64,000 nt of DNA from an uncultured Geminicoccaceae bacterium (GCA_964460465.1 CAYWSB010000001.1:14577-78576); one strand, 5' to 3'; counted from the first letter of the stretch, positions 26,843-39,015 are shown. The notes: a model not told the origin generated them from the sequence alone. A program made the numbers and translations.

Positions 26843-26935
26843 TACAGCACTGATACACCTGTCAGCTTGTCAAGGTGAGCGCACGTGCCACCTTAGGGAA
26901 GCCACCTTGGAAAACCGCCGGCTGGAGAGACGAGC

Positions 26936-28060
26936 TTGAGCATCGTTCGCCAAGTCATCTTGTCCCTGTTGCTCGTTGCCGCGGCCGGCGGCGGGTTCCT
27001 CTTCTACAACCATTTTACGGCCGAGAGCGCCGCCCCGGCCAATGGCCCGTCGGCGAGCCGGGCGGTGGGCGTGGTGGTGGCGGCGGCCGAGCTCGAGACC
27101 GTGCGCGACCGGGCCGAGGCGGTGGGCACCACGCTTGCCAACCAGGCGATCCAGATCGTGCCGCTGGCTTCCGGGCGGATCGTCGAGCTCGCCTTCGAGC
27201 CCGGCGCGGCGGTCGTTGCCGGCACCGTCCTGGCGCGGCTCGACGACACCATCGAGCGTGCCGACCTCGCCGAGGCACAGGCCATGCAGCAGGAGGCCGT
27301 CTCCGCCCTGGAGCGCGGCCAGCGCCTGCGATCGAGCAACAACATCGCCGCCGCAACCCTGGTCGAGCTGCAGGCGGCGGCCAGTGCCGCCCAGGCGCGG
27401 GTCGACCGGGCCGCACAGCGGCTCGAGGACCGGGTCGTGCGGGCACCCTTCGACGGGGTCGTGGGTATTCGCCGGGTCGACCTGGGGGCCCGGGTCGACA
27501 ACGACACGGTGATCACCACGCTCGACGATCGCCGCGAGATGATCGTCGAGTTCTCGCTGCCCGAGGTCTTCTACGGCCGGGTCGAGCGCGGCCTGGCGGT
27601 CGAGGCCACGAGCACGAGCTTCCCCGACCGCAGCTTCGACGGGGTGATCACCTCGGTCGACACCCGCATCGACGTCGCCAGCCGCTCGTTCAGGGTGCGC
27701 GCGTCCTTGCCCAACCCCGACCTTCTGCTGCCCGCCGGGCTCTTCGTCCTGGTCGACGTGACGCTGGATGCACGCGAGACCGTGGTCGTCCCCGAGGAGG
27801 CGATCGTCACCGAGGCCGGCCGCGCCATCGCCTACGTGGCGGCCGGCGAGCGCGCCGAGCGCCGAGCGGTGCAGCTCGGCACGCGGATGCTGGGCCGCGT
27901 CGAGATCGTGGCCGGGCTGGAGCCGGGCGAACTCGTGGTCACCCGCGGCTTGCAGCGGATGCGCGACGGCCTCGCCATCCGCTACGAGCTGCCCGAGGGC
28001 GGCGACGGCGACCCGGTGGCGGCTCCGGAGGTGGTGCCCCCGGCCGGAGACGTCGGATGA
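26936..28060 (+). CDS. RND efflux periplasmic adaptor (membrane fusion protein)
   Basis: N-terminal TM, coiled-coil region, beta-barrel C-terminus typical of HlyD/AcrA family; ATGA overlap with the RND pump. Confidence 0.85.
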   Translation: MSIVRQVILSLLLVAAAGGGFLFYNHFTAESAAPANGPSASRAVGVVVAAAELETVRDRAEAVGTTLANQAIQIVPLASGRIVELAFEPGAAVVAGTVLARLDDTIERADLAEAQAMQQEAVSALERGQRLRSSNNIAAATLVELQAAASAAQARVDRAAQRLEDRVVRAPFDGVVGIRRVDLGARVDNDTVITTLDDRREMIVEFSLPEVFYGRVERGLAVEATSTSFPDRSFDGVITSVDTRIDVASRSFRVRASLPNPDLLLPAGLFVLVDVTLDARETVVVPEEAIVTEAGRAIAYVAAGERAERRAVQLGTRMLGRVEIVAGLEPGELVVTRGLQRMRDGLAIRYELPEGGDGDPVAAPEVVPPAGDVG

Positions 28061-31000
28061 CGCTCTCCGAGCTGTGCATCAGGCGACCGGTGCTGGCCAC
28101 CGTCGTCAGCCTCCTGATCGTCGTCTTCGGTGTGGCGGCGATCCTGCAGCTGCCGGTGCGCGAGCTGCCTGACGTCGACCGGGCCGTGATCACGGTGACG
28201 ACCACCTACACCGGTGCCGCACCGGAGATCATCGACACCGATGTCACCGAGCTGATCGAGGGTGCCGTCGCCGGCGTCTCCGGGGTGCGCGAGATCAGCT
28301 CGACGAGCCGGCGGGGGCGCAGCCAGACGACCATCACCTTCAATGTTGGACGGGACATCGACCAGGCGGCCAACGATGTGCGCGATGCCGTGTCCCGGGT
28401 GCGCAACAGCCTGCCCGGCGACGCCGACGAGCCGCGGATCGTCAAGAGCGACAGCGACGCCGACCCGGTTCTGCGCATCGGCGTCGTCTCCGACCGCATG
28501 ACGCCGTCGGAGATCACCGACTACATCGAGCGCTTCCTGGTCGACCGGCTGGCGACGCTCGACGGTGTGGCCAATGTCGAGATCAACGGCCAGCGGCGGT
28601 TCGCCATACGCATCTGGCTCGACCGCCGGGCCATGGCGGCACGCAACCTGACGGTCGCCGACATCGAGGGGGCGTTGCGCCGCAACAATCTCGAGCTGCC
28701 GGCGGGCGAAGTCGAATCCCTGACCCGCGAGCTCTCGGTCCGGCTCGACAGCCGCCTGCAGGATGTCGACGGCTTCCGGCGGATCGTCGTCGACACCCGC
28801 GACGGCTACCCGATCCGCCTCGGCGACGTCGCCCGGGTCGAGCTCGGCAGCGAGGACGAATCGACCTTCGTGCGCTCCGACGGCCGCACCTCGGTCGGCA
28901 TCAGCGTGCTGCGCCAGTCGCAGTCCAACATCATCCAGATCTCGAACGCCGTGCGCACCGAGCTCGATGCGCTGCGGCCGACCCTGCCGCCCGGAATGGA
29001 GCTGCTGATCGGGTCGGACGAGGCGATCTTCATTCGCGCCACCATCAAGGAGGTGCTCACGGCCCTCGGCATTGCCGTCGTCCTCGTGGTGCTGGTCATC
29101 TTCGCGTTCCTCTTGTCGCCGCGGGCGACGGTGGTGCCGGCGGTGACCATCCCGGTGGCGGTGATCGGCAGCTTCTCGCTGATCCTGCTCCTCGGCTTCT
29201 CGATCAACGTCCTGACCCTCTTGGCGCTGATCCTCGCCATCGGGCTCGTCGTCGACGACGCCATCGTCATGCTCGAGAACATCCAGCGCCGCATCGACGA
29301 GGGTCTGCCGCCGGTGGCCGCCTCGGTGCTGGGTGCAAAGCAGGTCACCTTCGCGGTCATCGCCACGTCGCTCACCCTGATCGCCGTGTTCGTGCCGCTC
29401 TCCTTCATGGAGGGGGCGGTAGGCCGGCTGTTCGTCGAGTTCGGCCTGGTGCTGGCCGCGACCGTCGTCATCTCGACTTTCGTCGCCCTCACCCTCTGCC
29501 CGGCCCTCTGCTCGCGGCTGCTCCGGCCGCGCGCGTCCGGCCCCGGCGACGCCGGCCGGCTCGGCCGGGCCGTGATGAACGGCTACAGGCGCCTGCTGGC
29601 CGGCGTCCTGGCGGCTCCCCTGCCGGTGATCGTCGTGGCCGTCCTGCTCGCCGGGACGAGCTTCTGGCTCTACCGCATCCTGCCGCAGGAGCTCGCACCG
29701 GCCGAGGACCGCGGCGTCTTCTTCGTGCCGGTGGTGGGCCCGCAGGGTGCCACGGTCGCCTATACCGACGAGCACGTCGCCCTGATCGAGGCGGCGCTGC
29801 GGCCGCTCCTGGAGAGCGGCGAGGCCGAGCGGATCTTCGCCATCGGCGGCATGGGCGGTCGCGGCAATCGCGGCTTCGTCGTCGCCCGGCTCGCCGAGTG
29901 GGGCGAGCGCGAGCGCAGCCAGGGCGAGATCGTCCGCGCGATGGTCCCCGAGATCGGCGGCATCAGCGGTGTGCGCGCCTTCCCGGTGAGCCCGGCCGGG
30001 CTCGGCCTGCGCGGGTCGGGCTCGCCGCTGCGCTTGGTCATCGGCGGCCCCGACTTCGCCAGCGTCAAGGAGTGGGGCGACAACATCCTGGAGCTGGCGC
30101 GCGACAACCCGAACCTCGAGAACCTCGACATCGACTTCGAGGAGAACCAGCCGCAGCTCACCCTCCGGGTCGACCGCGACCGGGCCGACGATCTCGGCAT
30201 CCCGCTCGAGACGATTGCCCAGACGCTGCAGACGCTCCTGGCCTCGCGCGAGGTCACCGAGTTCATCGACCGCGGCCGCGAGTACGCTGTGATCCTCCAG
30301 GCGCAGCGCGAGGACCGGCAGAGCCCGACCGATCTCGCCAACATCTTCGTGCGCAGCGCTGCCGGCGAGCTGGTGCCACTCGGCGCCATCGTCTCGCCCG
30401 AGGAGGGGGCGACGGCACCCGAGCTCATGCGGTTCGACCGGCTACCGGCGGTGACCATCACGGCGTCCCTGGCCGACGGCTACGACCTGGGTACGGCCAT
30501 CCGCTACATGCAGGCACTGGCGGCGGAGGCCCTGCCGCCCGAGGCTCGGGTGGGCTTCGCCGGGCAGAGCCGCGAGTTCCTCGACGCCTCGGGCGGGCTC
30601 TTCCTCACCTTCGCGCTCGCGCTTGTGATCGTCTTCCTCGTGCTCGCCGCCCAGTTCGAGAGCTGGGTCCATCCCCTGATCATCATGCTCTCCGTGCCGC
30701 TGGCCGTCGCGGGTGCGCTGTTCTCGCTCTGGGGCACCGGCGGCGGGCTCAACGTCTACAGCCAGATCGGCATCGTCCTGCTGATCGGCCTGATGGCCAA
30801 GAACGGCATCCTCATCGTCGAGTTCGCCAACCAGCTCCGCGACCAGGGCATGAGCGTGCGCGAGGCGGTCCTGGAGGCGTCGGCGCTGCGGCTGCGGCCG
30901 ATCGCCATGACCGTGGTCTCGACGGTGCTCGGGGCGGTGCCGCTGGTCATCGCGACCGGTGCCGGGGCGGAGAGCCGGATCGCGATCGGGACGGTGATCA

Positions 31001-31164
31001 TCGGCGGGCTGGGCCTCGCCTCGATGCTGACCCTTTTCCTGACGCCGGTGCTCTACGACCTGTTGGCCCGCTTCGCCCGTCCGTCCGGTGCCGTGGGCGA
31101 GCAGCTCGAGCGCGAGCTCGAGGCGATCCGCGGACGCGAAGCGCGGCCGCAGCCGGCCGAGTAG
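28057..31164 (+). CDS. RND multidrug efflux transporter (AcrB/AcrD/AcrF family)
   Basis: MTLSELCIRRPVLATVVSLLIVVFG..., 1035 aa, 12-TM architecture with two large periplasmic loops. Confidence 0.9.
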   Translation: MTLSELCIRRPVLATVVSLLIVVFGVAAILQLPVRELPDVDRAVITVTTTYTGAAPEIIDTDVTELIEGAVAGVSGVREISSTSRRGRSQTTITFNVGRDIDQAANDVRDAVSRVRNSLPGDADEPRIVKSDSDADPVLRIGVVSDRMTPSEITDYIERFLVDRLATLDGVANVEINGQRRFAIRIWLDRRAMAARNLTVADIEGALRRNNLELPAGEVESLTRELSVRLDSRLQDVDGFRRIVVDTRDGYPIRLGDVARVELGSEDESTFVRSDGRTSVGISVLRQSQSNIIQISNAVRTELDALRPTLPPGMELLIGSDEAIFIRATIKEVLTALGIAVVLVVLVIFAFLLSPRATVVPAVTIPVAVIGSFSLILLLGFSINVLTLLALILAIGLVVDDAIVMLENIQRRIDEGLPPVAASVLGAKQVTFAVIATSLTLIAVFVPLSFMEGAVGRLFVEFGLVLAATVVISTFVALTLCPALCSRLLRPRASGPGDAGRLGRAVMNGYRRLLAGVLAAPLPVIVVAVLLAGTSFWLYRILPQELAPAEDRGVFFVPVVGPQGATVAYTDEHVALIEAALRPLLESGEAERIFAIGGMGGRGNRGFVVARLAEWGERERSQGEIVRAMVPEIGGISGVRAFPVSPAGLGLRGSGSPLRLVIGGPDFASVKEWGDNILELARDNPNLENLDIDFEENQPQLTLRVDRDRADDLGIPLETIAQTLQTLLASREVTEFIDRGREYAVILQAQREDRQSPTDLANIFVRSAAGELVPLGAIVSPEEGATAPELMRFDRLPAVTITASLADGYDLGTAIRYMQALAAEALPPEARVGFAGQSREFLDASGGLFLTFALALVIVFLVLAAQFESWVHPLIIMLSVPLAVAGALFSLWGTGGGLNVYSQIGIVLLIGLMAKNGILIVEFANQLRDQGMSVREAVLEASALRLRPIAMTVVSTVLGAVPLVIATGAGAESRIAIGTVIIGGLGLASMLTLFLTPVLYDLLARFARPSGAVGEQLERELEAIRGREARPQPAE

Positions 31165-31247
31165 GCGGGCGGCGCGGCAAGAGTGGCGCTCGACCGATCC
31201 GCGGCGTAGGAGCGACGCCGGGGCCCGCGCCCTGGGGAGTGCCTCGC

Positions 31248-31844
31248 TTGAGCATCGTCTACTATCTGTCGCATCCGGAGGTGACCATCGACCCGGCCGT
31301 CGCCGTGCCTGACTGGGGCCTTTCGGCCGTGGGCCGGCTTCGGCTGCTGGCAGTGCACGGCGCCGCCTGGCTCCTGTCCTGCCGGCGCATCGTCAGCAGT
31401 GCCGAGCGCAAGGCGGTGGAGACGGCGGCGCTGATCGCCGAGGCCTCGGGTGCCGCCGTCGAGGTGCGATCGGCGATGCACGAGAACGACCGTTCGGCAA
31501 CCGGCTTCCTGCCGCCGGCCGAGTTCGAGTTCATGGCCGACCGGTTCTTTGCCGAGCCCGAGCGCTCGGTGCGGGGCTGGGAGCGGGCGGTGGATGCCCA
31601 GGCGCGCATCCGGGGCGAGTTCGACGCCGTGCTGGACGGCCACGATCCGGCCCGGCCACTGCTGCTGGTCGGCCATGGCAGGGTCGGCACGCTCCTCTAC
31701 TGCGCGCTAGCGGGACGACCCATCGACCGGCGCTTCGATCAGGCCCGGGCCGGCAGCGTCATCGCCATCGACCTTCCCGGGCGGCGGCCGCGCTTCGGCT
31801 GGACGTCGATGGAGGAGGTGGCCGCGCGCCTCGCCGCCGGTTGA
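31248..31844 (+). CDS. histidine phosphatase (phosphoglycerate mutase-like) family protein
   Basis: YYLSHPEV N-terminus (RHG-like position), LVGHGRV motif; TTG start with GGGGAG 8 nt upstream. Confidence 0.6.
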   Translation: MSIVYYLSHPEVTIDPAVAVPDWGLSAVGRLRLLAVHGAAWLLSCRRIVSSAERKAVETAALIAEASGAAVEVRSAMHENDRSATGFLPPAEFEFMADRFFAEPERSVRGWERAVDAQARIRGEFDAVLDGHDPARPLLLVGHGRVGTLLYCALAGRPIDRRFDQARAGSVIAIDLPGRRPRFGWTSMEEVAARLAAG

Positions 31845-31992
31845 CCGGTCCCTTCCGGGCTTCCAGTGGCTCCGCTCCCGTCTTGCGATCTGCCCCTTGC
31901 GGCGACCGGCCGGGGGGCGTATCCGAACCCGCCCCGGTGCGGCACGGTTCTTCGTGCCCGGCAGTCGGCAGGGTCGAGGAACCTACCAGACG

Positions 31993-33183
31993 ATGAACGG
32001 CTCGGTCTGCGCCGACGCGGCGTCGCCGGTCGCCATGCGGCGCGACGCGGCGACCTGGCACGGCTACCTCCTGCTCGGCTTCTTCACCTACCTGCTCAAC
32101 ATCCAAGGCAACATCCTGCCCTACCTCCAGGCCGAGCTGGCGCTCGGCTACGGCACCGCGGCGCTGCACGCCTCGGCCATCGCCCTGGGCATGATCCTGA
32201 CCGGGCTGACGGGCGAGCGCCTGATCGCCCGGCTCGGCCGCGGGCCGGCGCTGGCCCTGGGTGGGCTCGGCGCGGGGCTCGGTGCCGTCCTGCTCTGCCT
32301 CGCACCCGCCGCCTGGCTGAGCATCCCGGCCTGCTTCCTCTTGGGCCTCGCCGGCAGCCTGATCCCGTCCGTGGTGCCGGCGATGCTGGCGGAGATCCAC
32401 GGCCGCCACCGCGACCGGGCGCTGGCCGAGGTCGGTGCCGCCTGCTACGCCTTCGCGGTCGTGGCCCCGCTGGCCATGGGGGCGACGCTCGCCCTCGGGC
32501 TTGGCTGGCGCGGTGCGGTGCTGGCCGGGGTGGCCACGGGCGGGGCGATCCTTTTGGCCGGCCGCAGGGCGGAGGTGCCCGAGGGCTCGCCTGGCGCAGC
32601 GCACGCCCCGGCCAAGCTGCCGCTCGGCTACTGGGCCTACTGGCTCCTGCTCGCCCTCGTCGTCGCCGTCGAGTTCAGCGTGCTGCTCTGGGCGCCGGCC
32701 TATCTCGAGCGGGTGGTGGGACTGGCGCCGGCGGCGGCCGCCGGGCTGGCGGCGGTCTTCGCGGCGGCGATGCTGGTCGGCAGGCTCGCCGGCAGTGCCC
32801 TCGTCGGCCGGCTCGACCCGCGGCCACTCTACGTGGCGGCGCTGCTGGTGACGCTGGCGGGCTTCGCCCTCTACTGGCTGGCGGCCCTGCCCTGGCTCGC
32901 GGTGTTGGGGCTGGCTATCCTGGGGCTGGGCGCAGCACTGCTCTATCCGCTGACCCTCGGCTTGGCACTCGAGGCGGCGGGGCCGCTCGCTGCGGCCGCC
33001 AGCGCGCGCTTCATGCTGGCGGTCGGGCTGGCCATCCTGGTCGCTCCCTTTGCCCTGGGTGCGCTGGCCGATCGCGTTGGCCTCGCCCATGCCCATCTCG
33101 TCATCCCGGCGCTCGTCCTGGGAGCGCTGGTCGTGCTCGGCGCGGCCCGGCGGCTGGACCGCCGGCATCTGGTAGGCGACTGA
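31993..33183 (+). CDS. MFS transporter, substrate unknown
   Basis: 12 predicted TM helices; ATG 31993 chosen, ATG 32035 is an alternative. Confidence 0.75.
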   Translation: MNGSVCADAASPVAMRRDAATWHGYLLLGFFTYLLNIQGNILPYLQAELALGYGTAALHASAIALGMILTGLTGERLIARLGRGPALALGGLGAGLGAVLLCLAPAAWLSIPACFLLGLAGSLIPSVVPAMLAEIHGRHRDRALAEVGAACYAFAVVAPLAMGATLALGLGWRGAVLAGVATGGAILLAGRRAEVPEGSPGAAHAPAKLPLGYWAYWLLLALVVAVEFSVLLWAPAYLERVVGLAPAAAAGLAAVFAAAMLVGRLAGSALVGRLDPRPLYVAALLVTLAGFALYWLAALPWLAVLGLAILGLGAALLYPLTLGLALEAAGPLAAAASARFMLAVGLAILVAPFALGALADRVGLAHAHLVIPALVLGALVVLGAARRLDRRHLVGD

Positions 33184-33244
33184 GCCCTTGCGCCGGCTGC
33201 CGGCCCATGGCCATGGTCGGGGCGGCAAGAACGAGGGAGGCCCC

Positions 33245-34450
33245 ATGGCCAAGGCCTATGTCGCCGGCACGCTGGACAGCAAGCGGGCCGAGATCGCCTA
33301 TGTCCGCGACTGCCTGGAGGCGGTGGGGGTCGCCACCCGGCTGGTCGATCTCGGCACGAGTGGTGCGGACGTGGCGGGTGCGGACGTGGCGGCGGCCGAG
33401 GTCGCGCGCCACCACCCGGACGGGGCCGCGGCGGTCTTCACCGGCGATCGCGGCACGGCGGTGGCCGCCATGGCCGAGGCGTTCCGGGCCTACGTGCTGA
33501 CCCGGACGGATCTCGGCGGGCTCATCGGGGCGGGGGGCTCGGGCAATACCTCGCTGGTCGCCCCGGCGATGCGCGCCCTGCCCGTGGGGCTGCCCAAGGT
33601 GCTGGTCTCGACCGTGGCCTCGGGCAACGTCGCCCCCTACGTGGGGCCGGCGGACATCACCATGGTCCATGCCGTGGCCGATGTGCAGGGCCTCAATGCC
33701 ATCACCCGCAGGGTGCTGGGCAACGCCGCGCATGCGCTGGCCGGGATGATGCGCCATCCGATTCCCCCGCCCGCCGAGGGCCCCAAGCCGGCCATCGGCC
33801 TTACCATGTTCGGCGTCACCACGGCTTGCGTGCAGGCGGTGACCAGGGCGCTGGAGGCGGAGCACGACTGCCTCGTCTTTCACGCCACGGGCACTGGCGG
33901 GCAGAGTCTCGAGAAGCTGGTCGAGAGCGGCCTCGTCAAGGCGATGCTGGACCTGACCACAACGGAGATCGCCGATCTCCTCGTGGGCGGGGTGATGCCG
34001 GCGACCGAAGGCCGGCTCGAGGCCGTGATCAAGACCGGCGTGCCGTATGTGGGCTCGGTGGGGGCGCTGGACATGGTCAATTTCGGGCCGGTCGCCACGG
34101 TCCCGGAGCGCTTCCACGACCGCCGGCTGTACATCCACAACCCCAACGTCACCCTGATGCGCACGACCCCGGAGGAGAACGCCCGGATCGCCCGCTGGCT
34201 GGCGGCCAGGCTCAACCGGATGACCGGCCCGGTACGCTTCCTGTTGCCCGAGGGCGGGGTGTCGGCGATCGACGTCGAGGGGGCACCCTTCTTCGACCCG
34301 CGCGCCGACCAGGCGCTGTTCGAGACGCTCGAGGCGGCGTTCGTGCCGGCGGCCAACCGTCGCCTCGTCCGGGTCCCGGCCGCGATCAACGATCCCGTCT
34401 TCGCCGCCGCCGTGGTCGCCGCCTTTCGCGACATCACCAAGGGAGCCTGA
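33245..34450 (+). CDS. UPF0261 / Tm-1-like ATP-binding domain protein
   Basis: MAKAYVAGTLDSKRAEIAYVRDCLEAVG...LVDLGT, GGSGNTSL and other family-typical blocks; GAGGGAGG RBS. Confidence 0.8.
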   Translation: MAKAYVAGTLDSKRAEIAYVRDCLEAVGVATRLVDLGTSGADVAGADVAAAEVARHHPDGAAAVFTGDRGTAVAAMAEAFRAYVLTRTDLGGLIGAGGSGNTSLVAPAMRALPVGLPKVLVSTVASGNVAPYVGPADITMVHAVADVQGLNAITRRVLGNAAHALAGMMRHPIPPPAEGPKPAIGLTMFGVTTACVQAVTRALEAEHDCLVFHATGTGGQSLEKLVESGLVKAMLDLTTTEIADLLVGGVMPATEGRLEAVIKTGVPYVGSVGALDMVNFGPVATVPERFHDRRLYIHNPNVTLMRTTPEENARIARWLAARLNRMTGPVRFLLPEGGVSAIDVEGAPFFDPRADQALFETLEAAFVPAANRRLVRVPAAINDPVFAAAVVAAFRDITKGA

Positions 34451-34453
34451 GCC

Positions 34454-35299
34454 ATGCCGCGTTTCGCCCGCGAAGCCCTGATGGAGCGGTTCCGCGACAT
34501 GGCGCGCCGCCGCGTGCCGATCGTCGGCGGCGGCGCCGGCACCGGCCTCTCGGCCAAGTGCGAGGAGGCGGGTGGCATCGACCTCATCGTCATCTACAAT
34601 TCCGGCCGCTACCGGATGGCCGGCCGCGGCTCGCTCGCCGGGCTGCTCGCCTACGGCAACGCCAACGAGATCGTCGTCGAGATGGCGCGCGAGGTGCTGC
34701 CGGTGGTCCAGCGGACGCCGGTCCTGGCCGGGGTCAACGGCACCGATCCGTTCATGCTCCGCGACCGTTTCCTCGACGAGCTCGCCGGGCTCGGCTTCTC
34801 CGGCATCCAGAACTTCCCGACCGTGGGCCTGTTCGACGGCGTCTTCCGGCAGAACCTCGAGGAGACCGGGATGGGCTACGGGCTCGAGGTCGAGCTGATC
34901 GTCGCCGCGCGGGCGCGGAACCTCCTGACCACGCCCTATGTTTTCTCGCGCGACGAGGCCGTCGCCATGGCCAAGGCCGGGGCGGACATCATCGTGCCGC
35001 ACATGGGTCTGACGACGGGTGGCACGATCGGTGCAGAGACGGCGCTGGCGCTGGCGGACTGCCCGGCGCTGATCGACGAGTGGGCCATGGCGGCGATGGA
35101 CGTGAACCCCGATATCCTGGTGCTCTGCCACGGCGGGCCCATCGCCATGCCGGCGGAGGCGGCCTTTGTCCTGGCGCACACCCGGCATTGCCACGGCTTC
35201 TACGGTGCTTCATCCATGGAGCGCCTGCCCACGGAGCAGGCACTCACAGCGCAGGTGGAGGCGTTCAAGGCGATCGGCTTCGCCGACAGGGCAGGGTGA
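34454..35299 (+). CDS. phosphoenolpyruvate hydrolase-like TIM-barrel family protein
   Basis: [52 protein letters not shown]...[10 protein letters not shown]...[13 protein letters not shown], the conserved partner of UPF0261 proteins. Confidence 0.8.
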
Positions 35300-35686
35300 A
35301 TGACGGACAGGGTCGGAATTCTCATCGTCTCCCACTCCGCCAAGGTGGCCGAGGGGACGGTGGACATGGTGCGGCAGATGGTCGGCGACGAGGTCGCCTG
35401 CGCCGGAGTCGGCGGCAACCCGGAAGGTGGGCTCGGCGTCGACGTCGCCGCCATCCTGGCCGGGATCCAGCAGGTCTGGTCGCCGGCCGGCGTCGCCGTC
35501 CTGGTCGACCTCGGCGGGGCCGAGATGAACAGCGACATGGCAATCGAGATGCTGGATGAGGCGCGGCGGCCGCTGGTGCGGGTCTGCGCGGCACCGATCG
35601 TCGAGGGAGCGGTGATCGCCGCCACCGAGGCTTCCGCCGGCAGCTCCCTCGACGAGGTGGTGGCGGCGGCCGAGGAGATGGGCTGA
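35300..35686 (+). CDS. EIIA(Man)-like phosphotransfer protein (DhaM N-terminal domain type)
   Basis: GILIVSHSAKVAEG (phospho-His context), VLVDLGGAEMN, CAAPIVEGAV match the DhaM N-domain; ATG directly abuts the upstream stop (TGAATG). Confidence 0.8.
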   Translation: MTDRVGILIVSHSAKVAEGTVDMVRQMVGDEVACAGVGGNPEGGLGVDVAAILAGIQQVWSPAGVAVLVDLGGAEMNSDMAIEMLDEARRPLVRVCAAPIVEGAVIAATEASAGSSLDEVVAAAEEMG

Positions 35687-35967
35687 TGACGGTGACGACG
35701 GCACGGCTGACCATCACCCATCCGACCGGGCTGCACGCCCGGCCCGCGGTCAAGCTCACCAAGCTCGCCAAGACCTTCCCGGCCGAGATCCGGCTCAGGC
35801 CGCTGCCGGACGGTACGTGGATCGACGCCAAGAGCATCGTCAAGGTGATGGCGCTGAAGCTCCGGACCGGCACCGAGATCGAGGTCGAGGCGGCGGGCGA
35901 AGCGGCCGCTGCCGCGATCGAGGCCCTGAGCGGCCTCGTCGTGCGGAACTTCGACGAGGATGGCTGA
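35686..35967 (+). CDS. HPr-family phosphocarrier protein
   Basis: THPTGLHARPA (His-15 motif), 93 aa; TGATG overlap with the EIIA-like gene. Confidence 0.85.
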   Translation: MTVTTARLTITHPTGLHARPAVKLTKLAKTFPAEIRLRPLPDGTWIDAKSIVKVMALKLRTGTEIEVEAAGEAAAAAIEALSGLVVRNFDEDG

Positions 35968-37549
35968 ACGGCGCTACCCGGGCCGGATCGCGGCACCGGG
36001 CCTGGCCCGGGGTCCGCTGGTCCACCTGCCCGAGCCGCGCGCCCCGGCTCCGATCGACGCTGCCGTTGCCGATCCGGACGGAGAGCGGGCGCGGCTGACG
36101 GCGGCCCTTGCCGCCGCGCGGTCGGCGCTCGACGCTCTCGCCGGCAGGGTGGACGACATGGCCGGGGAGATCCTCGGTTTTCAGCTCGAGATGCTGGACG
36201 ATCCGGCGCTCGCCGAGACCGCCTTCGCGGCGATCGCGGCGGGCACCGCGGCGACCGCCGCCTGGCGGGCGGCACTGGACGAGCAGATCGCCGTCTTTCT
36301 CGCCGACGACGACGGCTATTTCCGGGCCCGGGCAGCGGACCTCGCCGATCTGCGCGACCGCGTGCATGCGGTGCTCGAGGGTGCCGGCGGCGAGGTCCAG
36401 GCCCTGCCCGAGGGCGCCATCCTCCACGCCCACGACCTCTCACCGTCGCGCTTCCTCGCCTTCGACTGGCCGAGGCTCGGTGGTGCGGCCCTCGTCAACG
36501 GCAGTGCCGCCGGCCATGTGGCGATGCTCGCCCGGGCCCGTGGCGTGCCGCTCCTCGTCGGTCTCGGTGAGGTGGCGGCAGGGGCCGGCGAAGCGGTGCT
36601 GGACGCGCTGGCCGGGCAGCTCGTCGTCGCCCCCTCCCCGCGGACGGCCGCCGCCTATGCCGAGCGGCTGGACGCGGCGAGGGCGGAGGCCGCGGCGGCG
36701 GCCGCGGCGCTCGCCCGGCCGGCGGTGACCGCGAACGGCCAGGCGATCACGGTGATGGTCAATGTCGACGATCCCGATGCCGTGCCCGACGACCTCTTGC
36801 GGGCGAGCGACGGGGTCGGCCTCTTGCGCACCGAGTTCCTGTTCATGAGCCGACCTCGCCTGCCGGACGAGGCGGCGCAGCACCGGGTCTATCGGCGGCT
36901 CCTCGAGCGACTGGGTGGCCGCCCGCTGGTGCTGCGCACGCTCGACATCGGCGGCGACAAGCCGCTCGCCGGCCTCAACCTGCCGCCCGAGGCCAACCCC
37001 TTCCTGGGCCTGCGCGGTCTGCGCCTGTGCCTCGCCATGCCTGAGCTCTTCCGGCCGCAGCTCCGGGCGGCGATCAGGGCGGCGGCGGCAGGGCCGCTCT
37101 CGATCATGCTGCCAATGGTGAGCCGGGCGGCCGAGGTCGCGGCGGCGCGTGCCATCCTGGCGGCCGAGGCCGCCGACCTCAACCTGCCGGTGCCACCGCT
37201 CGGGATCATGGTCGAGACTCCGGCGGCGGCCCTGGCGCTGGACGCGATGCCGATCGATTTCGCCTCGATCGGCTCCAACGATCTGACCCAGTACGTCATG
37301 GCGGCAGCCCGCGACGGGGTGGGCCCCGTGGCCGATCTGGTCGATCCGCTCGACCCGGCGGTGCTGCGGCTGATCGGGCTCGTGGTCGAGGCAGCGGCGG
37401 CGCGCGGGTTGCCGCTCTCGCTCTGCGGCGACATGGCGTCCGACCGGGCCGGGCTCGAGGCGCTGCTGGCGCTGGGCCTCACGCGCATCTCCGTGGCCCC
37501 GGCGGCGCTGGGCCGGGTCAAGCTGTGGATCGACCGCTACAACCGCTGA
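35960..37549 (+). CDS. PEP-protein phosphotransferase (Enzyme I family)
   Basis: GGAALVNGSAAGHVAMLARARGVP (phospho-His), LLRTEFLF, SIGSNDLTQY motifs; 8-nt overlap with HPr. Confidence 0.85.
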   Translation: MAERRYPGRIAAPGLARGPLVHLPEPRAPAPIDAAVADPDGERARLTAALAAARSALDALAGRVDDMAGEILGFQLEMLDDPALAETAFAAIAAGTAATAAWRAALDEQIAVFLADDDGYFRARAADLADLRDRVHAVLEGAGGEVQALPEGAILHAHDLSPSRFLAFDWPRLGGAALVNGSAAGHVAMLARARGVPLLVGLGEVAAGAGEAVLDALAGQLVVAPSPRTAAAYAERLDAARAEAAAAAAALARPAVTANGQAITVMVNVDDPDAVPDDLLRASDGVGLLRTEFLFMSRPRLPDEAAQHRVYRRLLERLGGRPLVLRTLDIGGDKPLAGLNLPPEANPFLGLRGLRLCLAMPELFRPQLRAAIRAAAAGPLSIMLPMVSRAAEVAAARAILAAEAADLNLPVPPLGIMVETPAAALALDAMPIDFASIGSNDLTQYVMAAARDGVGPVADLVDPLDPAVLRLIGLVVEAAAARGLPLSLCGDMASDRAGLEALLALGLTRISVAPAALGRVKLWIDRYNR

Positions 37550-37658
37550 TTTTCGCCGGCCAGAACGGCGCTGCCACGCGACCTTGGCTGTGCCGGCCGC
37601 ATTTCACTGGTAGGGTCGCGCTCATTCGACCCAGCCGAACACAACGAGGAGACGCCTC

Positions 37659-38066
37659 ATGAAAATGTTCGACGGCATGCGGCGGGGCTTGGCCCAGCTT
37701 GCGATCGTGCTCGTGCTCGTGGCCAGCCTGCCCGTGGGCGTGGTCCAGGCCGGGCTGGTCTCGACCGACAGCGTGATCGCCGACACCTTCGGCGTCGACG
37801 AGACCCGCGCCCGGGTCGAGGCGTTCATGGCCCGCGACGAGGTCAGGGCTCAGTTCGCCGCCATGGGCGTCGATGCGCGCGAGGCCGAGCAGCGGATCGC
37901 CGCGCTGAGCGACGCCGAGATCGAGCGGATCGCCGGCCAGCTCGACCAGCTCCCGGCCGGCGAGGGCATTCTGACGGCCATCGCCATCACCGCTGGCGTC
38001 ATCCTGATCATCCTGATCATCACCGACATTGCCGGCATCACCAACGTCTTCACCTTCATCAAGTAG
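37659..38066 (+). CDS. PA2779-like small secreted/anchored protein
   Basis: Signal peptide, charged helical middle (ARVEAFMARDEVRAQFAAMGVDAREAEQRIAALSDAEIERIAGQL), C-terminal hydrophobic helix ILTAIAITAGVILIILIITDIAG; GAGGAGA RBS. Confidence 0.6.
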   Translation: MKMFDGMRRGLAQLAIVLVLVASLPVGVVQAGLVSTDSVIADTFGVDETRARVEAFMARDEVRAQFAAMGVDAREAEQRIAALSDAEIERIAGQLDQLPAGEGILTAIAITAGVILIILIITDIAGITNVFTFIK

Positions 38067-38106
38067 GCTCACGAGCCCGTTGCCCGGTCGGCTGCCGCGG
38101 GCGTCC

Positions 38107-39015
38107 ATGGGGCGCGGCCGGCGGTCCCGCCTTGCCGGTGCCTTGCTGGCGCTCGCCCTGACGGCTGCGTGCACGACTGCGCCGGGCCTGCCGCCGCCGG
38201 GCGATCCGAGCCTCGGCGCCCTGCCGGTGGCCGAGGCGGTGGCGGGGGTGCCGTTCTTCCCGCAGGACGACTACTATTGCGGGCCGGCGGCGCTCGCCAT
38301 GGTGCTCGCCTGGTCGGGGCACGAGGTCACCCAGGACGACCTCGTGCCCGTGGTCTACACGCCGGGCCGGCAGGGCACGCTGCAGGCCGACATCCTCGCC
38401 GGTGCGCGCCGCTACGGCCGGCTCGCCGTCCCGGTGGGCACGGTGCCGGACCTCCTGGCCGAGCTCGCCGCCGGCCACCCGGTGCTGGTCTTCCAGAACC
38501 TCGCCTTGCCCGTCTGGCCGCAATGGCACTATGCCGTGGCCACCGGCTACGACCTGGACGAGCGGCGGCTGCGGCTGCATTCGGGGCGCATCGCCGACGA
38601 CACGACGCATCTCGCCACCTTCACCCGGACCTGGGCCCGGGGCGGCTACTGGGCGCTGGTCGTGCTGCCGCCGGACCGCCTGCCGGCGACGGCCGGCGAG
38701 CGGGCGGTGCTCGAGGCGGCGGCGGCGCTCGAGCGGGCCGAACGCCCGGCCGAGGCGGCCACTGCCTACGCCACGATCCTGACCCGCTGGCCGGCGAGCC
38801 TGCCGGGCTGGATCGGGCTTGGCAACGCCGCCTACGCCACCGGCGACAGGCACCGCGCCGCCGCCGCCTTCAGGAGCGCGGCCGAGCGGCATCCAGGCTC
38901 GGTGGCGGCCTGGCGCAACCTGGCCTTCGTGCTCGGCGAGCTCGGCGACGCTGCCGGTGCGGAAGAGGCCACCGCCAGGGCCGAGGCGCTGGTCGCCGCG
39001 CCGGCCGAGGGCTGA
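38107..39015 (+). CDS. PA2778-like C39-type cysteine peptidase with C-terminal TPR region, probable lipoprotein
   Basis: LALTAAC lipobox-like signal, QDDYYCGPAALAMVL (catalytic Cys context), WHYAVATGYD (His), TPR-like repeats in the C-terminal third. Confidence 0.65.
   Translation: MGRGRRSRLAGALLALALTAACTTAPGLPPPGDPSLGALPVAEAVAGVPFFPQDDYYCGPAALAMVLAWSGHEVTQDDLVPVVYTPGRQGTLQADILAGARRYGRLAVPVGTVPDLLAELAAGHPVLVFQNLALPVWPQWHYAVATGYDLDERRLRLHSGRIADDTTHLATFTRTWARGGYWALVVLPPDRLPATAGERAVLEAAAALERAERPAEAATAYATILTRWPASLPGWIGLGNAAYATGDRHRAAAAFRSAAERHPGSVAAWRNLAFVLGELGDAAGAEEATARAEALVAAPAEG

Follow-up and report, generated by a model that had tools for sequence, protein, structure and literature searches.

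Five tightly packed + strand genes lie within the window, the 64-kb stretch of DNA that was analysed (Table 1). The junctions between them are, in gene order, +3 nt, 0 nt (TGAATG), -1 nt (TGATG) and -8 nt. Rechecking confirmed the coordinates and gaps given in the initial annotation, and likewise the placement of an MFS transporter gene (PF07690) and, before it, a histidine phosphatase gene (PF00300) upstream of the block. The families assigned to the five genes are strongly supported by Pfam and NCBIfam profile scores. The same operon was recovered in independent assemblies (Logan, JGI, ENA and two NCBI MAGs) and is therefore no assembly artefact. Purifying selection acts on each of the five genes (dN/dS 0.10-0.26), and the arrangement is both real and old.

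Table 1. Genes of the five-gene block and of its immediate surroundings
Product	Position	Strand	Remarks
Histidine-phosphatase-superfamily (His_Phos_1) protein	31248-31844	+	PF00300, 47 bits
MFS transporter	31993-33183	+	PF07690; 61 nt upstream of UPF0261 gene
UPF0261 (Tm-1-like ATP-binding) protein	33245-34450	+	401 aa; PF06792, PF23189, NF002673
PF09370 ('PEP_hydrolase'-like) TIM-barrel protein	34454-35299	+	281 aa; Pfam 418 bits
DhaM-type EIIA(Man) protein	35300-35686	+	128 aa; PF03610, TIGR02364
HPr phosphocarrier	35686-35967	+	93 aa; PF00381, TIGR01003
Enzyme I (EI; PEP:protein phosphotransferase)	35960-37549	+	529 aa; PF05524, PF00391, PF02896
PA2779-family (DUF6627) and PA2778-family C39-like peptidase/TPR proteins	37659-39015	+	Pfam, NF033919, NF033920

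The UPF0261/PF09370 pair

The UPF0261 protein matches the profiles of its N and C domains (PF06792 and PF23189) with 195 and 300 bits, and NCBIfam NF002673 with 606 bits against a cut-off of 520. Its nearest solved structure is tomato Tm-1 (297 bits, ~40% identity), to which it is closer than to MarK (Saro_1862, PDB 9MPY; 188 bits, 33% identity), the ATP-dependent aromatic kinase of Novosphingobium aromaticivorans. Foldseek comparison of an AF2 model of the window protein (pLDDT 88) gave TM scores of 0.85-0.89 to Tm-1 and 0.65 to MarK, with which it has a two-domain fold in common. The activity known so far for Tm-1 is limited to the binding of a viral helicase (PMC5028733, PMC12624787). MarK, itself a UPF0261 protein, has been demonstrated to be a small-molecule kinase that converts ATP to ADP (PMC12624787), and the earlier description of UPF0261 as having no established bacterial function is thus outdated. 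The D-x-K motif of the MarK ATP site is kept in the window protein as D11/S12/K13, with K13, the equivalent of MarK K16 and Tm-1 K20, invariant throughout alignment A1, and the glycine and histidine residues that contact the acceptor are kept as G190, H213 and H298. Four of the seven residues of the MarK acetovanillone pocket (G195, T196, H219, F283, I285, H304, H348) are changed, namely T196V, F283M, I285N and H348I. By homology to MarK the UPF0261 protein is probably an ATP-dependent small-molecule kinase. The genetic context of MarK differs from that of the window protein, in that MarK has no PF09370 partner and is encoded in an acvCDEF carboxylase operon (PMC12624787).

The PF09370 protein resembles the structural-genomics protein Mll9387 (PDB 2P10) over its whole length (402 bits). 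Sequence-level searches detected no relation to the PEP-binding domain of EI, to other PEP-binding barrels or to other PDB families, leaving the label 'PEP hydrolase' without support at this level. PF09370 is a constant partner of UPF0261. In a survey of 80 other species with UPF0261/PF09370, 74 of whose loci were informative for adjacency, the PF09370 gene lies directly 3' of the UPF0261 gene in 71, as it does in the window. UPF0261-PF09370 gene fusions also exist (P0244, P0286 and others), and whereas the window has two separate genes, the two domains are fused in Tm-1-like proteins; this fusion and the adjacency in bacterial loci show that UPF0261 and PF09370 work together. A HAAT-type ABC importer is encoded upstream of the pair in 47-54 of the 80 species, and PTS genes are beside it in none of them. 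The pair thus ordinarily functions without a PTS, in line with the use of ATP by MarK (PMC12624787).

The relay and its origin

The three genes that follow the pair had been described as a split DhaM-type relay, and this assignment holds. The EIIA protein scores 89 bits against EIIA-man (PF03610) and 129 bits against TIGR02364 'dha_pts', well over the cut-off of 98, and has its phosphorylatable His12 in an IVSHS motif. HPr (PF00381, 87 bits; TIGR01003, 72 bits) has His17 within a GLHARPA motif that is kept in all relatives. EI has all three of its domains (PF05524, PF00391 and PF02896) and no GAF domain; it scores 333.5 bits against TIGR01417, slightly below the cut-off of 341.7, and contains His186 and Cys489, which are invariant in alignment A2. 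No EIIB, EIIC or EIID was found among the operon genes or immediate neighbors at the window locus and seven in-clade loci. By its TIGR02364 match, intact catalytic residues and conserved EIIA, the trio is an ordinary DhaM relay.

Related loci have the stereotyped order dhaL-EIIA-HPr-EI-X-dhaK, in which DhaL is upstream of the relay (55/55 loci) and DhaK downstream of EI (46/46), as judged in the informative related loci; the outgroup DhaL and DhaK proteins pass NCBIfam equivalog cut-offs. The window trio is orthologous to this split alphaproteobacterial form of DhaKLM (EIIA 60-73%, HPr 44-78% and EI 45-62% identity), which it also resembles in gene order, overlapping junctions and catalytic residues, and the nearest outgroup EIs (58-62% identity) come from canonical dha operons. 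The trio is thereby shown to descend from a canonical dhaL-dhaM-hpr-ptsI-X-dhaK operon. What differs is the surroundings: DhaKLM has DhaL upstream and a conserved X protein of ~150 aa plus DhaK downstream, whereas the window locus lacks all three and has UPF0261 and PF09370 upstream and the PA2779/PA2778 genes downstream. In agreement with the initial annotation, the 64-kb window gave no match to DhaK or DhaL, and none to X, when searched by tblastn with seeds from E. coli and alphaproteobacteria. Dak1/Dak2 were likewise not found around the in-clade loci, of which ~195 kb were covered, with flanks of 11-22 kb in seven lineages; the positive controls were recovered. An intermediate stage of erosion is represented by L098, in which DhaL-EIIA-HPr-EI-X is present and there is no DhaK within 9 kb. 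The suggestion that the pair occupies the usual position of DhaL and DhaK is borne out for the place of DhaL: PF09370 precedes EIIA as DhaL does in canonical operons, and in the nearest of these DhaL overlaps the start of EIIA.

Linkage of pair and relay is confined to a single clade of six lineages (the window, L087, L090, L093, L179 and L181), and their fusion is shown to have had a single origin. The common ancestor of the clade already had the five-gene block, which is translationally coupled in all six lineages, with PF09370-EIIA junctions of 0, 0, -1, -4, -4 and 0 nt, while the genes upstream of it vary. The transporter and the phosphatase belong to these variable neighbors and are not core parts of the module: the MFS gene adjoins the block in three of the six pair-bearing lineages (the window, L087 and L090; absent in L093, L179 and L181) and adjoins the relay alone in L095, a lineage without the pair, and a His_Phos gene is near the block in four of the six (the window, L087, L090 and L179) and absent in L093, L181 and also L095. 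Because coupling has been kept in six lineages despite this turnover, it suggests selection for co-expression of the relay with the pair specifically. The PA2779/PA2778 genes, by comparison, follow EI at all seven in-clade loci, that of L095 included, and are absent from 80 canonical dha loci; they are constant downstream synteny markers with no evident functional link to the relay. The locus is, overall, a lineage-specific operon fusion, found in one narrow group of uncultured bacteria with high GC content.

Natural deletion of the pair and the acceptor of the relay

The lineage L095/L096 lacks the pair and nests inside the pair-bearing clade. A ~60-nt remnant of PF09370 is left in the L095 spacer; it scores 57 bits, where the best of 300 shuffles reached 32. 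The ancestral TGAATG junction is still present as well. All three relay reading frames are intact. The extra divergence of the remnant is ~0.19 substitutions per site, over which neutral decay predicts ~8 stops in the relay (P(none) ~3e-4), and dN/dS of EIIA in comparisons with L095 is 0.10-0.13. L095 is thus shown to be a natural deletion of the pair in which the relay has been retained under selection and, for this reason, the acceptor of the relay is very likely not the adjacent pair.

The same data bear on whether the adjacency has any meaning. Deletions next to a dha operon in decay could have joined two unrelated units under one promoter, with the relay now being lost, and both the high gene flux at the locus, where MFS, His_Phos and pair come and go, and the eroded operon of L098 would fit such a history. 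However, purifying selection has acted on all three genes of the relay across dS 0.5-0.9, they have survived intact even in L095, and the tight junctions have been kept in three different forms. Adjacency without functional meaning is largely refuted by these selection analyses, and we regard it as highly improbable.

The initial annotation had proposed a PTS-energised UPF0261 module. In such an arrangement EIIA~P would pass its phosphate to a nucleotide on the UPF0261 N-domain, much as DhaM does to DhaL-ADP, or directly to the pair, making the kinase PEP-driven rather than ATP-driven. The DhaM-type trio, the position of PF09370 exactly in the canonical place of DhaL with a tight EIIA junction in six lineages, and the ancestral, coupled block that persists while its upstream neighbors change all stand in favor of this proposal. 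Both units have also shed their usual company, since DhaL, X and DhaK are gone from these loci and the usual ABC importer and SRPBCC partner of the pair were not found at the in-clade loci. UPF0261 has been proven to be a kinase fold that uses nucleotides (PMC12624787), and its ATP-site lysine is kept. Natural fusions join PF09370 to two kinase folds that are unrelated to each other, UPF0261 and APH, and PF09370 therefore accepts different phosphoryl-donor partners. Furthermore, EI has evolved 1.4-2.8 times faster in L095 (12/12 relative-rate tests, p = 1e-5 to 0.045) with no acceleration of its flanking genes, which is what relaxed constraint after loss of a partner would look like, and three clade-specific UPF0261 changes (T12S, T145A and S154T) fall at positions of the nucleotide-binding domain that are invariant elsewhere.

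The mechanism is nevertheless weakened by L095, where the relay stayed intact and selected after the pair was deleted, with EIIA its most constrained gene, and by a linkage of single origin that none of the 80 other species with the pair has. Nor do the proteins bear the signature of a new interface, which is absent from EIIA, UPF0261 and PF09370. The three UPF0261 changes are inside the range of 0-5 seen in control subclades, and PF09370 has no exceptional clade-specific substitutions. EIIA, which is under the strongest constraint in the block (dN/dS 0.10-0.15), retains 59 of the 63 positions conserved across 65 canonical EIIAs, and its four changes are conservative and not significantly more than in EI. 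Foldseek found no similarity of the UPF0261 model to DhaL, DhaK or EIIA, and there is no PTS-domain fusion among the top 150 PF09370 representatives. A PTS-powered new kinase is therefore possible but unlikely, and is not the likeliest reading of the locus.

Alphaproteobacterial PTS components without EIIB/EIIC permeases are generally regulatory. The relay could accordingly report the PEP:pyruvate state through EIIA~P or HPr~P, as in PTS-Ntr or the HPr-dependent control of glycerol kinase, without any stoichiometric supply of phosphate; its targets could be the enzymes of the pair, a transporter, a transcription factor or another non-Dak acceptor encoded elsewhere. The operon does lack EIIB and EIIC, a relay that outlives the pair would fit a wider range of targets, and PF09370 is tied to signalling elsewhere, where it serves AraC-type and sigma-54 regulators as a sensor domain. 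Against this, the EIIA is of the canonical DhaM type, the only known role of which is phosphoryl donation to DhaL-ADP, no regulator gene was found in or beside the block, and support for any specific target is lacking. We consider a regulatory role improbable.

The explanation we tentatively prefer, without calling it probable, is that the relay goes on supplying phosphate to a Dak-type kinase whose genes are elsewhere in the genome, and is co-expressed with the pathway of the pair. The relay has lost its flanking DhaL, X and DhaK and become translationally coupled behind the UPF0261/PF09370 pair. Phosphate would still pass from PEP to EI His186, HPr His17 and EIIA His12, and from EIIA~P to ADP on the DhaL-type subunit of the distant Dak kinase. 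The pair would act independently with ATP, in the manner of MarK, on a hydroxylated small molecule. Co-transcription would then reflect shared regulation, or a common catabolic route with the Dak kinase acting on a product of the pathway of the pair. We infer all of these biochemical steps, as well as the existence of a Dak acceptor elsewhere in the genome. DhaL and DhaK always adjoin the canonical relay, and a Dak kinase acting in trans would therefore be unusual and presuppose either that the Dak genes have moved or that there is a second Dak locus. Among the 80 species in which the pair is not linked to PTS genes, two (L054 and L075) have a carbohydrate island that encodes both a Dak kinase without a neighboring DhaM and either the pair or UPF0261 on its own, against an estimated ~0.2 such cases expected by chance.

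The five-gene operon and the descent of its relay from dha operons

Five consecutive forward-strand genes in the window encode a UPF0261 protein, a TIM-barrel protein of family PF09370 ('PEP_hydrolase'-like), a DhaM-type EIIA, HPr and a three-domain EI. Their reading frames, coordinates and junctions lie exactly where the initial annotation placed them, and both Pfam and NCBIfam bear out the families it named. Also present, as it had claimed, are an MFS gene 61 nt upstream of the block and a histidine phosphatase (His_Phos_1) gene preceding that. The junctions between successive block genes are +3, 0 (TGAATG), -1 (TGATG) and -8 nt. All phospho-His and Cys residues of the relay formed by EIIA, HPr and EI are intact, dN/dS is 0.10-0.26 for all five genes, and the operon recurs, identical or in related form, in assemblies from Logan, JGI and ENA as well as in two NCBI MAGs. 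The reported lack of dhaK and dhaL holds across the 64-kb window, where searches that recovered their positive controls detected no DhaK, DhaL or X (a ~150-aa protein of canonical dha operons). There are no Rfam matches in the window. A scan of positions 30900-38300 yielded a single, weak sigma-70-like promoter match, near the 5' end within PF09370, and no intrinsic-terminator-like site anywhere in the block; at the 70% GC of this genome such a scan carries no information.

Coordinates of the block, its surroundings and the comparison loci
Feature	Location	Strand	Remarks
UPF0261	window 33245-34450	+	N and C domains (Pfam); NF002673 606 bits (cut-off 520)
PF09370 'PEP_hydrolase'	window 34454-35299	+	Pfam 418 bits
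EIIA-Man	window 35300-35686	+	TIGR02364 'dha_pts' 129 bits (cut-off 98)
HPr	window 35686-35967	+	Pfam/NCBIfam
EI, three-domain	window 35960-37549	+	Pfam/NCBIfam
Sigma-70-like promoter match	window 34572-34600	+	9/12
RND efflux pair	window 26875-31164	+	membrane-fusion protein and ACR_tran pump; upstream of His_Phos
PA2779-family (DUF6627) and PA2778-family C39-like peptidase/TPR genes	window 37659-39015	+	after EI
X, example from a canonical dha operon	L097:10622-11083	+	between EI and DhaK
DhaL-EIIA-HPr-EI-X	L098:7736-11129
UPF0261 homologue, small unannotated ORFs, two Phage_capsid_2 genes	L094:8001-17200
Carbohydrate island	L054:8912-16013		sugar ABC transporter (CUT1), UPF0261, cupin, xylose-isomerase-like barrel, PfkB, DhaK, DhaL, DJ-1, TIM
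Carbohydrate island	L075:701-14639		fused Dak1-Dak2, mutarotase, LacI, sugar ABC transporter (CUT1), UPF0261-PF09370, Gfo/Idh/MocA, isomerase-like barrel
PF09370 fusion proteins	P0283, P0317, P0352, P0325, P0346, P0376, P0358		APH-type kinases, AraC HTH, sigma-54 AAA+ activator, glyoxalase

Homologues of the EI protein show a clear identity step between 65% and 62%. Below this step, in loci L097 and L098, an ABC transporter is followed by genes in the order DhaL-EIIA-HPr-EI-X-DhaK, with DhaL and DhaK exceeding the NCBIfam equivalog cut-offs. An EI-anchored metagenome scan yielded 80 loci (45-61% identity), every one of which contains the canonical split dha operon, with DhaL upstream in 55/55 informative loci and DhaK downstream in 46/46; UPF0261, PF09370, the MFS gene and DUF6627 are absent from all 80. 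The stereotyped organization of these relatives identifies the trio in the window as a split-DhaM descendant that has shed DhaL from one side and X-DhaK from the other. X itself is conserved, has no Pfam or NCBIfam match and separates EI from DhaK in 72 of the 80 canonical operons (homologues in L098-L178); it is apparently an uncharacterised integral member of this operon type. Locus L098 retains DhaL and X but has no DhaK within 9 kb downstream, and so looks like a partly eroded dha operon, an intermediate in a series from L097 to the window clade that records the dismantling of the stereotyped arrangement. A UPF0261 homologue (P0056, 68% identity) is encoded on a 922,920-bp contig that is probably the one carrying the L098 operon.

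The complete block is found in six lineages, namely the window, L087, L090, L093, L179/L180 and L181/L182, with identities to the window of 77-100% for UPF0261 and 70-100% for EI. The PF09370/EIIA junction remains tight throughout (0, 0, -1, -4, -4 and 0 nt). Upstream, an RND pump, His_Phos and MFS genes are shared by the window, L087 and L090; L179 has the pump and His_Phos, L181 the pump only, and L093 instead LysR and Fe-ADH genes. This variation indicates that MFS and His_Phos are not core components. The downstream side is constant, with PA2779/PA2778-family genes following EI in each of the seven in-clade lineages. In a tree of EIIA, HPr and EI rooted on the canonical operons, L093 and L179 form the first in-clade branch (99% bootstrap), a placement that makes the fusion ancestral to the clade, with a single origin. 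The architecture, origin and age of the block operon are well supported.

Two gene models next to the block merit comment. The C39-like peptidase frame called mechanically (TTG at 38029) overlaps DUF6627 by 38 nt, and the true start is thus probably further downstream. The RND genes are syntenic in most in-clade loci; owing to a GC-rich open frame, the long pump ORF as listed starts well ahead of the actual gene.

UPF0261 and PF09370 beyond the clade

Scanning species-representative genomes with a UPF0261 alignment gave 80 loci at 56-67% identity (L005-L084). PF09370 follows UPF0261 on the same strand within 400 nt in 71 of the 74 informative loci. The initial annotation had proposed surveying how often this pair adjoins DhaM-domain, HPr and EI genes: the linkage stands as an ancestral feature of the six-lineage clade and does not extend to these other species, since EIIA, HPr and EI genes are found at 0/80 loci even at E <= 0.01 (61 of them could accommodate the trio). 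Most often the pair closes an operon for a HAAT-type ABC importer, with Peripla_BP_6, two BPD_transp_2 permeases and two ATPases preceding it on the same strand in 47-54 of the 80 loci, and a Polyketide_cyc2/SRPBCC gene lies downstream, also on the same strand, in 53 (within 7 kb either side of the UPF0261 match). We found no mention of this context in the literature, and none of these usual partners occurs in the window. Benzoatithermus flavus (70% identity) has the pair with Polyketide_cyc2 and no PTS genes. At L094 a UPF0261 homologue (68% identity) stands without PF09370 and is followed by small unannotated ORFs and two Phage_capsid_2 genes; a prophage insertion has possibly displaced PF09370.

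The only enzymology for the UPF0261 family concerns MarK, a kinase that converts ATP to ADP and acts on phenolic hydroxyls (PMC12624787). The UPF0261 protein of the window keeps the ATP-site motif of MarK (D11-S12-K13) and its acceptor-contacting residues (G190, H213 and H298), whereas four pocket residues differ, and of the two proteins tomato Tm-1 is the nearer (297 bits, against 188 for MarK). Whole-protein Foldseek matches to the predicted structure (pLDDT 88) were limited to Tm-1 and MarK; no Dak-like or EIIA-like fold appeared, and the idea of a hidden fold similarity to DhaK, DhaL or EIIA was set aside.

For PF09370, a profile search of PDB sequences matched only 2P10 (Mll9387), besides marginal FMN-barrel matches (E ~0.04-0.1). 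Comparison with EI by hhalign gave a probability of 0.2%, showing no relation to the PEP-binding barrel of EI, and we do not retain the 'PEP hydrolase' label. Our literature search found nothing on the function of the family. Its fusion partners comprise UPF0261 (Tm-1 type), an unrelated APH-type kinase fold, AraC-type and sigma-54 regulator outputs, and a glyoxalase domain. Such a range points to a barrel that binds ligands or catalyses a reaction and that has repeatedly teamed up with kinases or serves as a sensor. No fusion of PF09370 to a PTS domain was present among the top 150 PF09370 representatives.

A relay retained without the pair

One in-clade lineage, represented by two independent assemblies (L095/L096), has the gene order MFS-EIIA-HPr-EI-PA2779-PA2778 and is missing the pair. 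Its flanking genes are as near to those of the window as are the ones in L087 and L090, and the relay tree nests it within the pair-bearing group. Within the 172-nt MFS-EIIA spacer a remnant of ~60 nt of PF09370 coding sequence survives (gene positions 722-787), collinear with all six functional genes (best score 57 bits; 300 shuffles reached at most 32), and the spacer still ends in the ancestral GCTGAATGAC stop/start junction. The lineage is thus a natural pair-deletion mutant, useful for comparison. The remnant is 74.6% identical to functional PF09370 genes, which are 88.4% identical to one another, corresponding to ~0.19 extra substitutions per site. A trio evolving neutrally at that divergence would be expected to have acquired ~8 premature stops, with a probability of none of ~3e-4 (0.13 even at K = 0.05). 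All three relay ORFs of L095 are nevertheless intact and EIIA dN/dS is 0.10-0.13, indicating that selection has kept the relay without an adjacent pair.

No single fact bears more strongly on function than this persistence of a constrained DhaM relay, canonical in appearance, once the pair was lost. Together with the single origin of the linkage, the PTS-free state of the pair elsewhere and the lack of interface signatures described below, it makes the likeliest reading, which we adopt tentatively, that the relay continues to supply a Dak-type kinase whose genes lie elsewhere. On this view it would be co-expressed with the pathway of the pair. That the adjacency is meaningless is very improbable, being largely refuted by the selection analyses.

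The initial annotation had instead proposed a PEP-driven, PTS-energised kinase or nucleotide-recharging module, analogous but not homologous to DhaKL. Developed further, this would make UPF0261 and PF09370 a two-part enzyme, non-homologous to Dak, switched from ATP to PEP/PTS dependence by capture of the DhaM relay. The persisting translational coupling of the block is in keeping with such a switch, as is the fact that DhaL, X and DhaK have all disappeared, along with the pair's usual importer. So is the behavior of EI in L095, where lineage-specific substitutions are 1.4-2.8 times those of pair-bearing relatives (12/12 tests, p = 1e-5 to 0.045), a signal that is suggestive only, as it comes from one lineage. 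EIIA, HPr, PA2779 and PA2778 of L095 have no such excess, and dN/dS is somewhat higher for HPr and EI. The selected relay of L095 is difficult to reconcile with this proposal, which would require a second copy of the pair in genomes of that type. We consider it unlikely, and a regulatory role for the relay somewhat more doubtful still.

A new acceptor for EIIA would be expected to leave changes at the interface. The EIIA protein keeps 59 of 63 positions conserved in canonical homologues (the changes being V8L, I9V, A55G and N97A), which does not differ significantly from EI (4/139 changed) or HPr (0/20). UPF0261 has changed at three otherwise invariant positions (T12S, beside the ATP-site lysine, T145A and S154T), compared with 0-5 in control subclades of similar depth, and PF09370 has no clade-specific change at conserved positions. 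As signs of a new interface, clade-specific residues in the three proteins are therefore uninformative or negative.

Were the rewired kinase real, a DhaM-type EIIA would for the first time have an acceptor other than DhaL and a UPF0261 enzyme would for the first time be PEP-driven, mirroring the split between ATP and PTS dependence within the Dak family. A relay feeding the pair would also extend the PTS past its known targets, sugar permeases and Dak kinases, and would open a way to the function of two families, plant Tm-1-like proteins among them, that are very widespread and barely characterised. Our literature search turned up neither the block operon nor any DhaM relay that has parted from DhaKL and joined a UPF0261 operon, and nothing on DhaM relays with non-Dak partners.

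Dak genes apart from DhaM do exist. At two of the 80 unlinked loci (L054 and L075) UPF0261, at L075 together with PF09370, shares a carbohydrate island with a Dak kinase that has no DhaM next to it. Roughly 0.2 such co-locations would be expected by chance, and two are suggestive of a pathway that connects the module with Dak kinases. These islands, taken with the ABC-importer context of the pair, hint at a carbohydrate-like or other imported hydroxylated substrate for UPF0261/PF09370 and at a possible connection to a Dak pathway.
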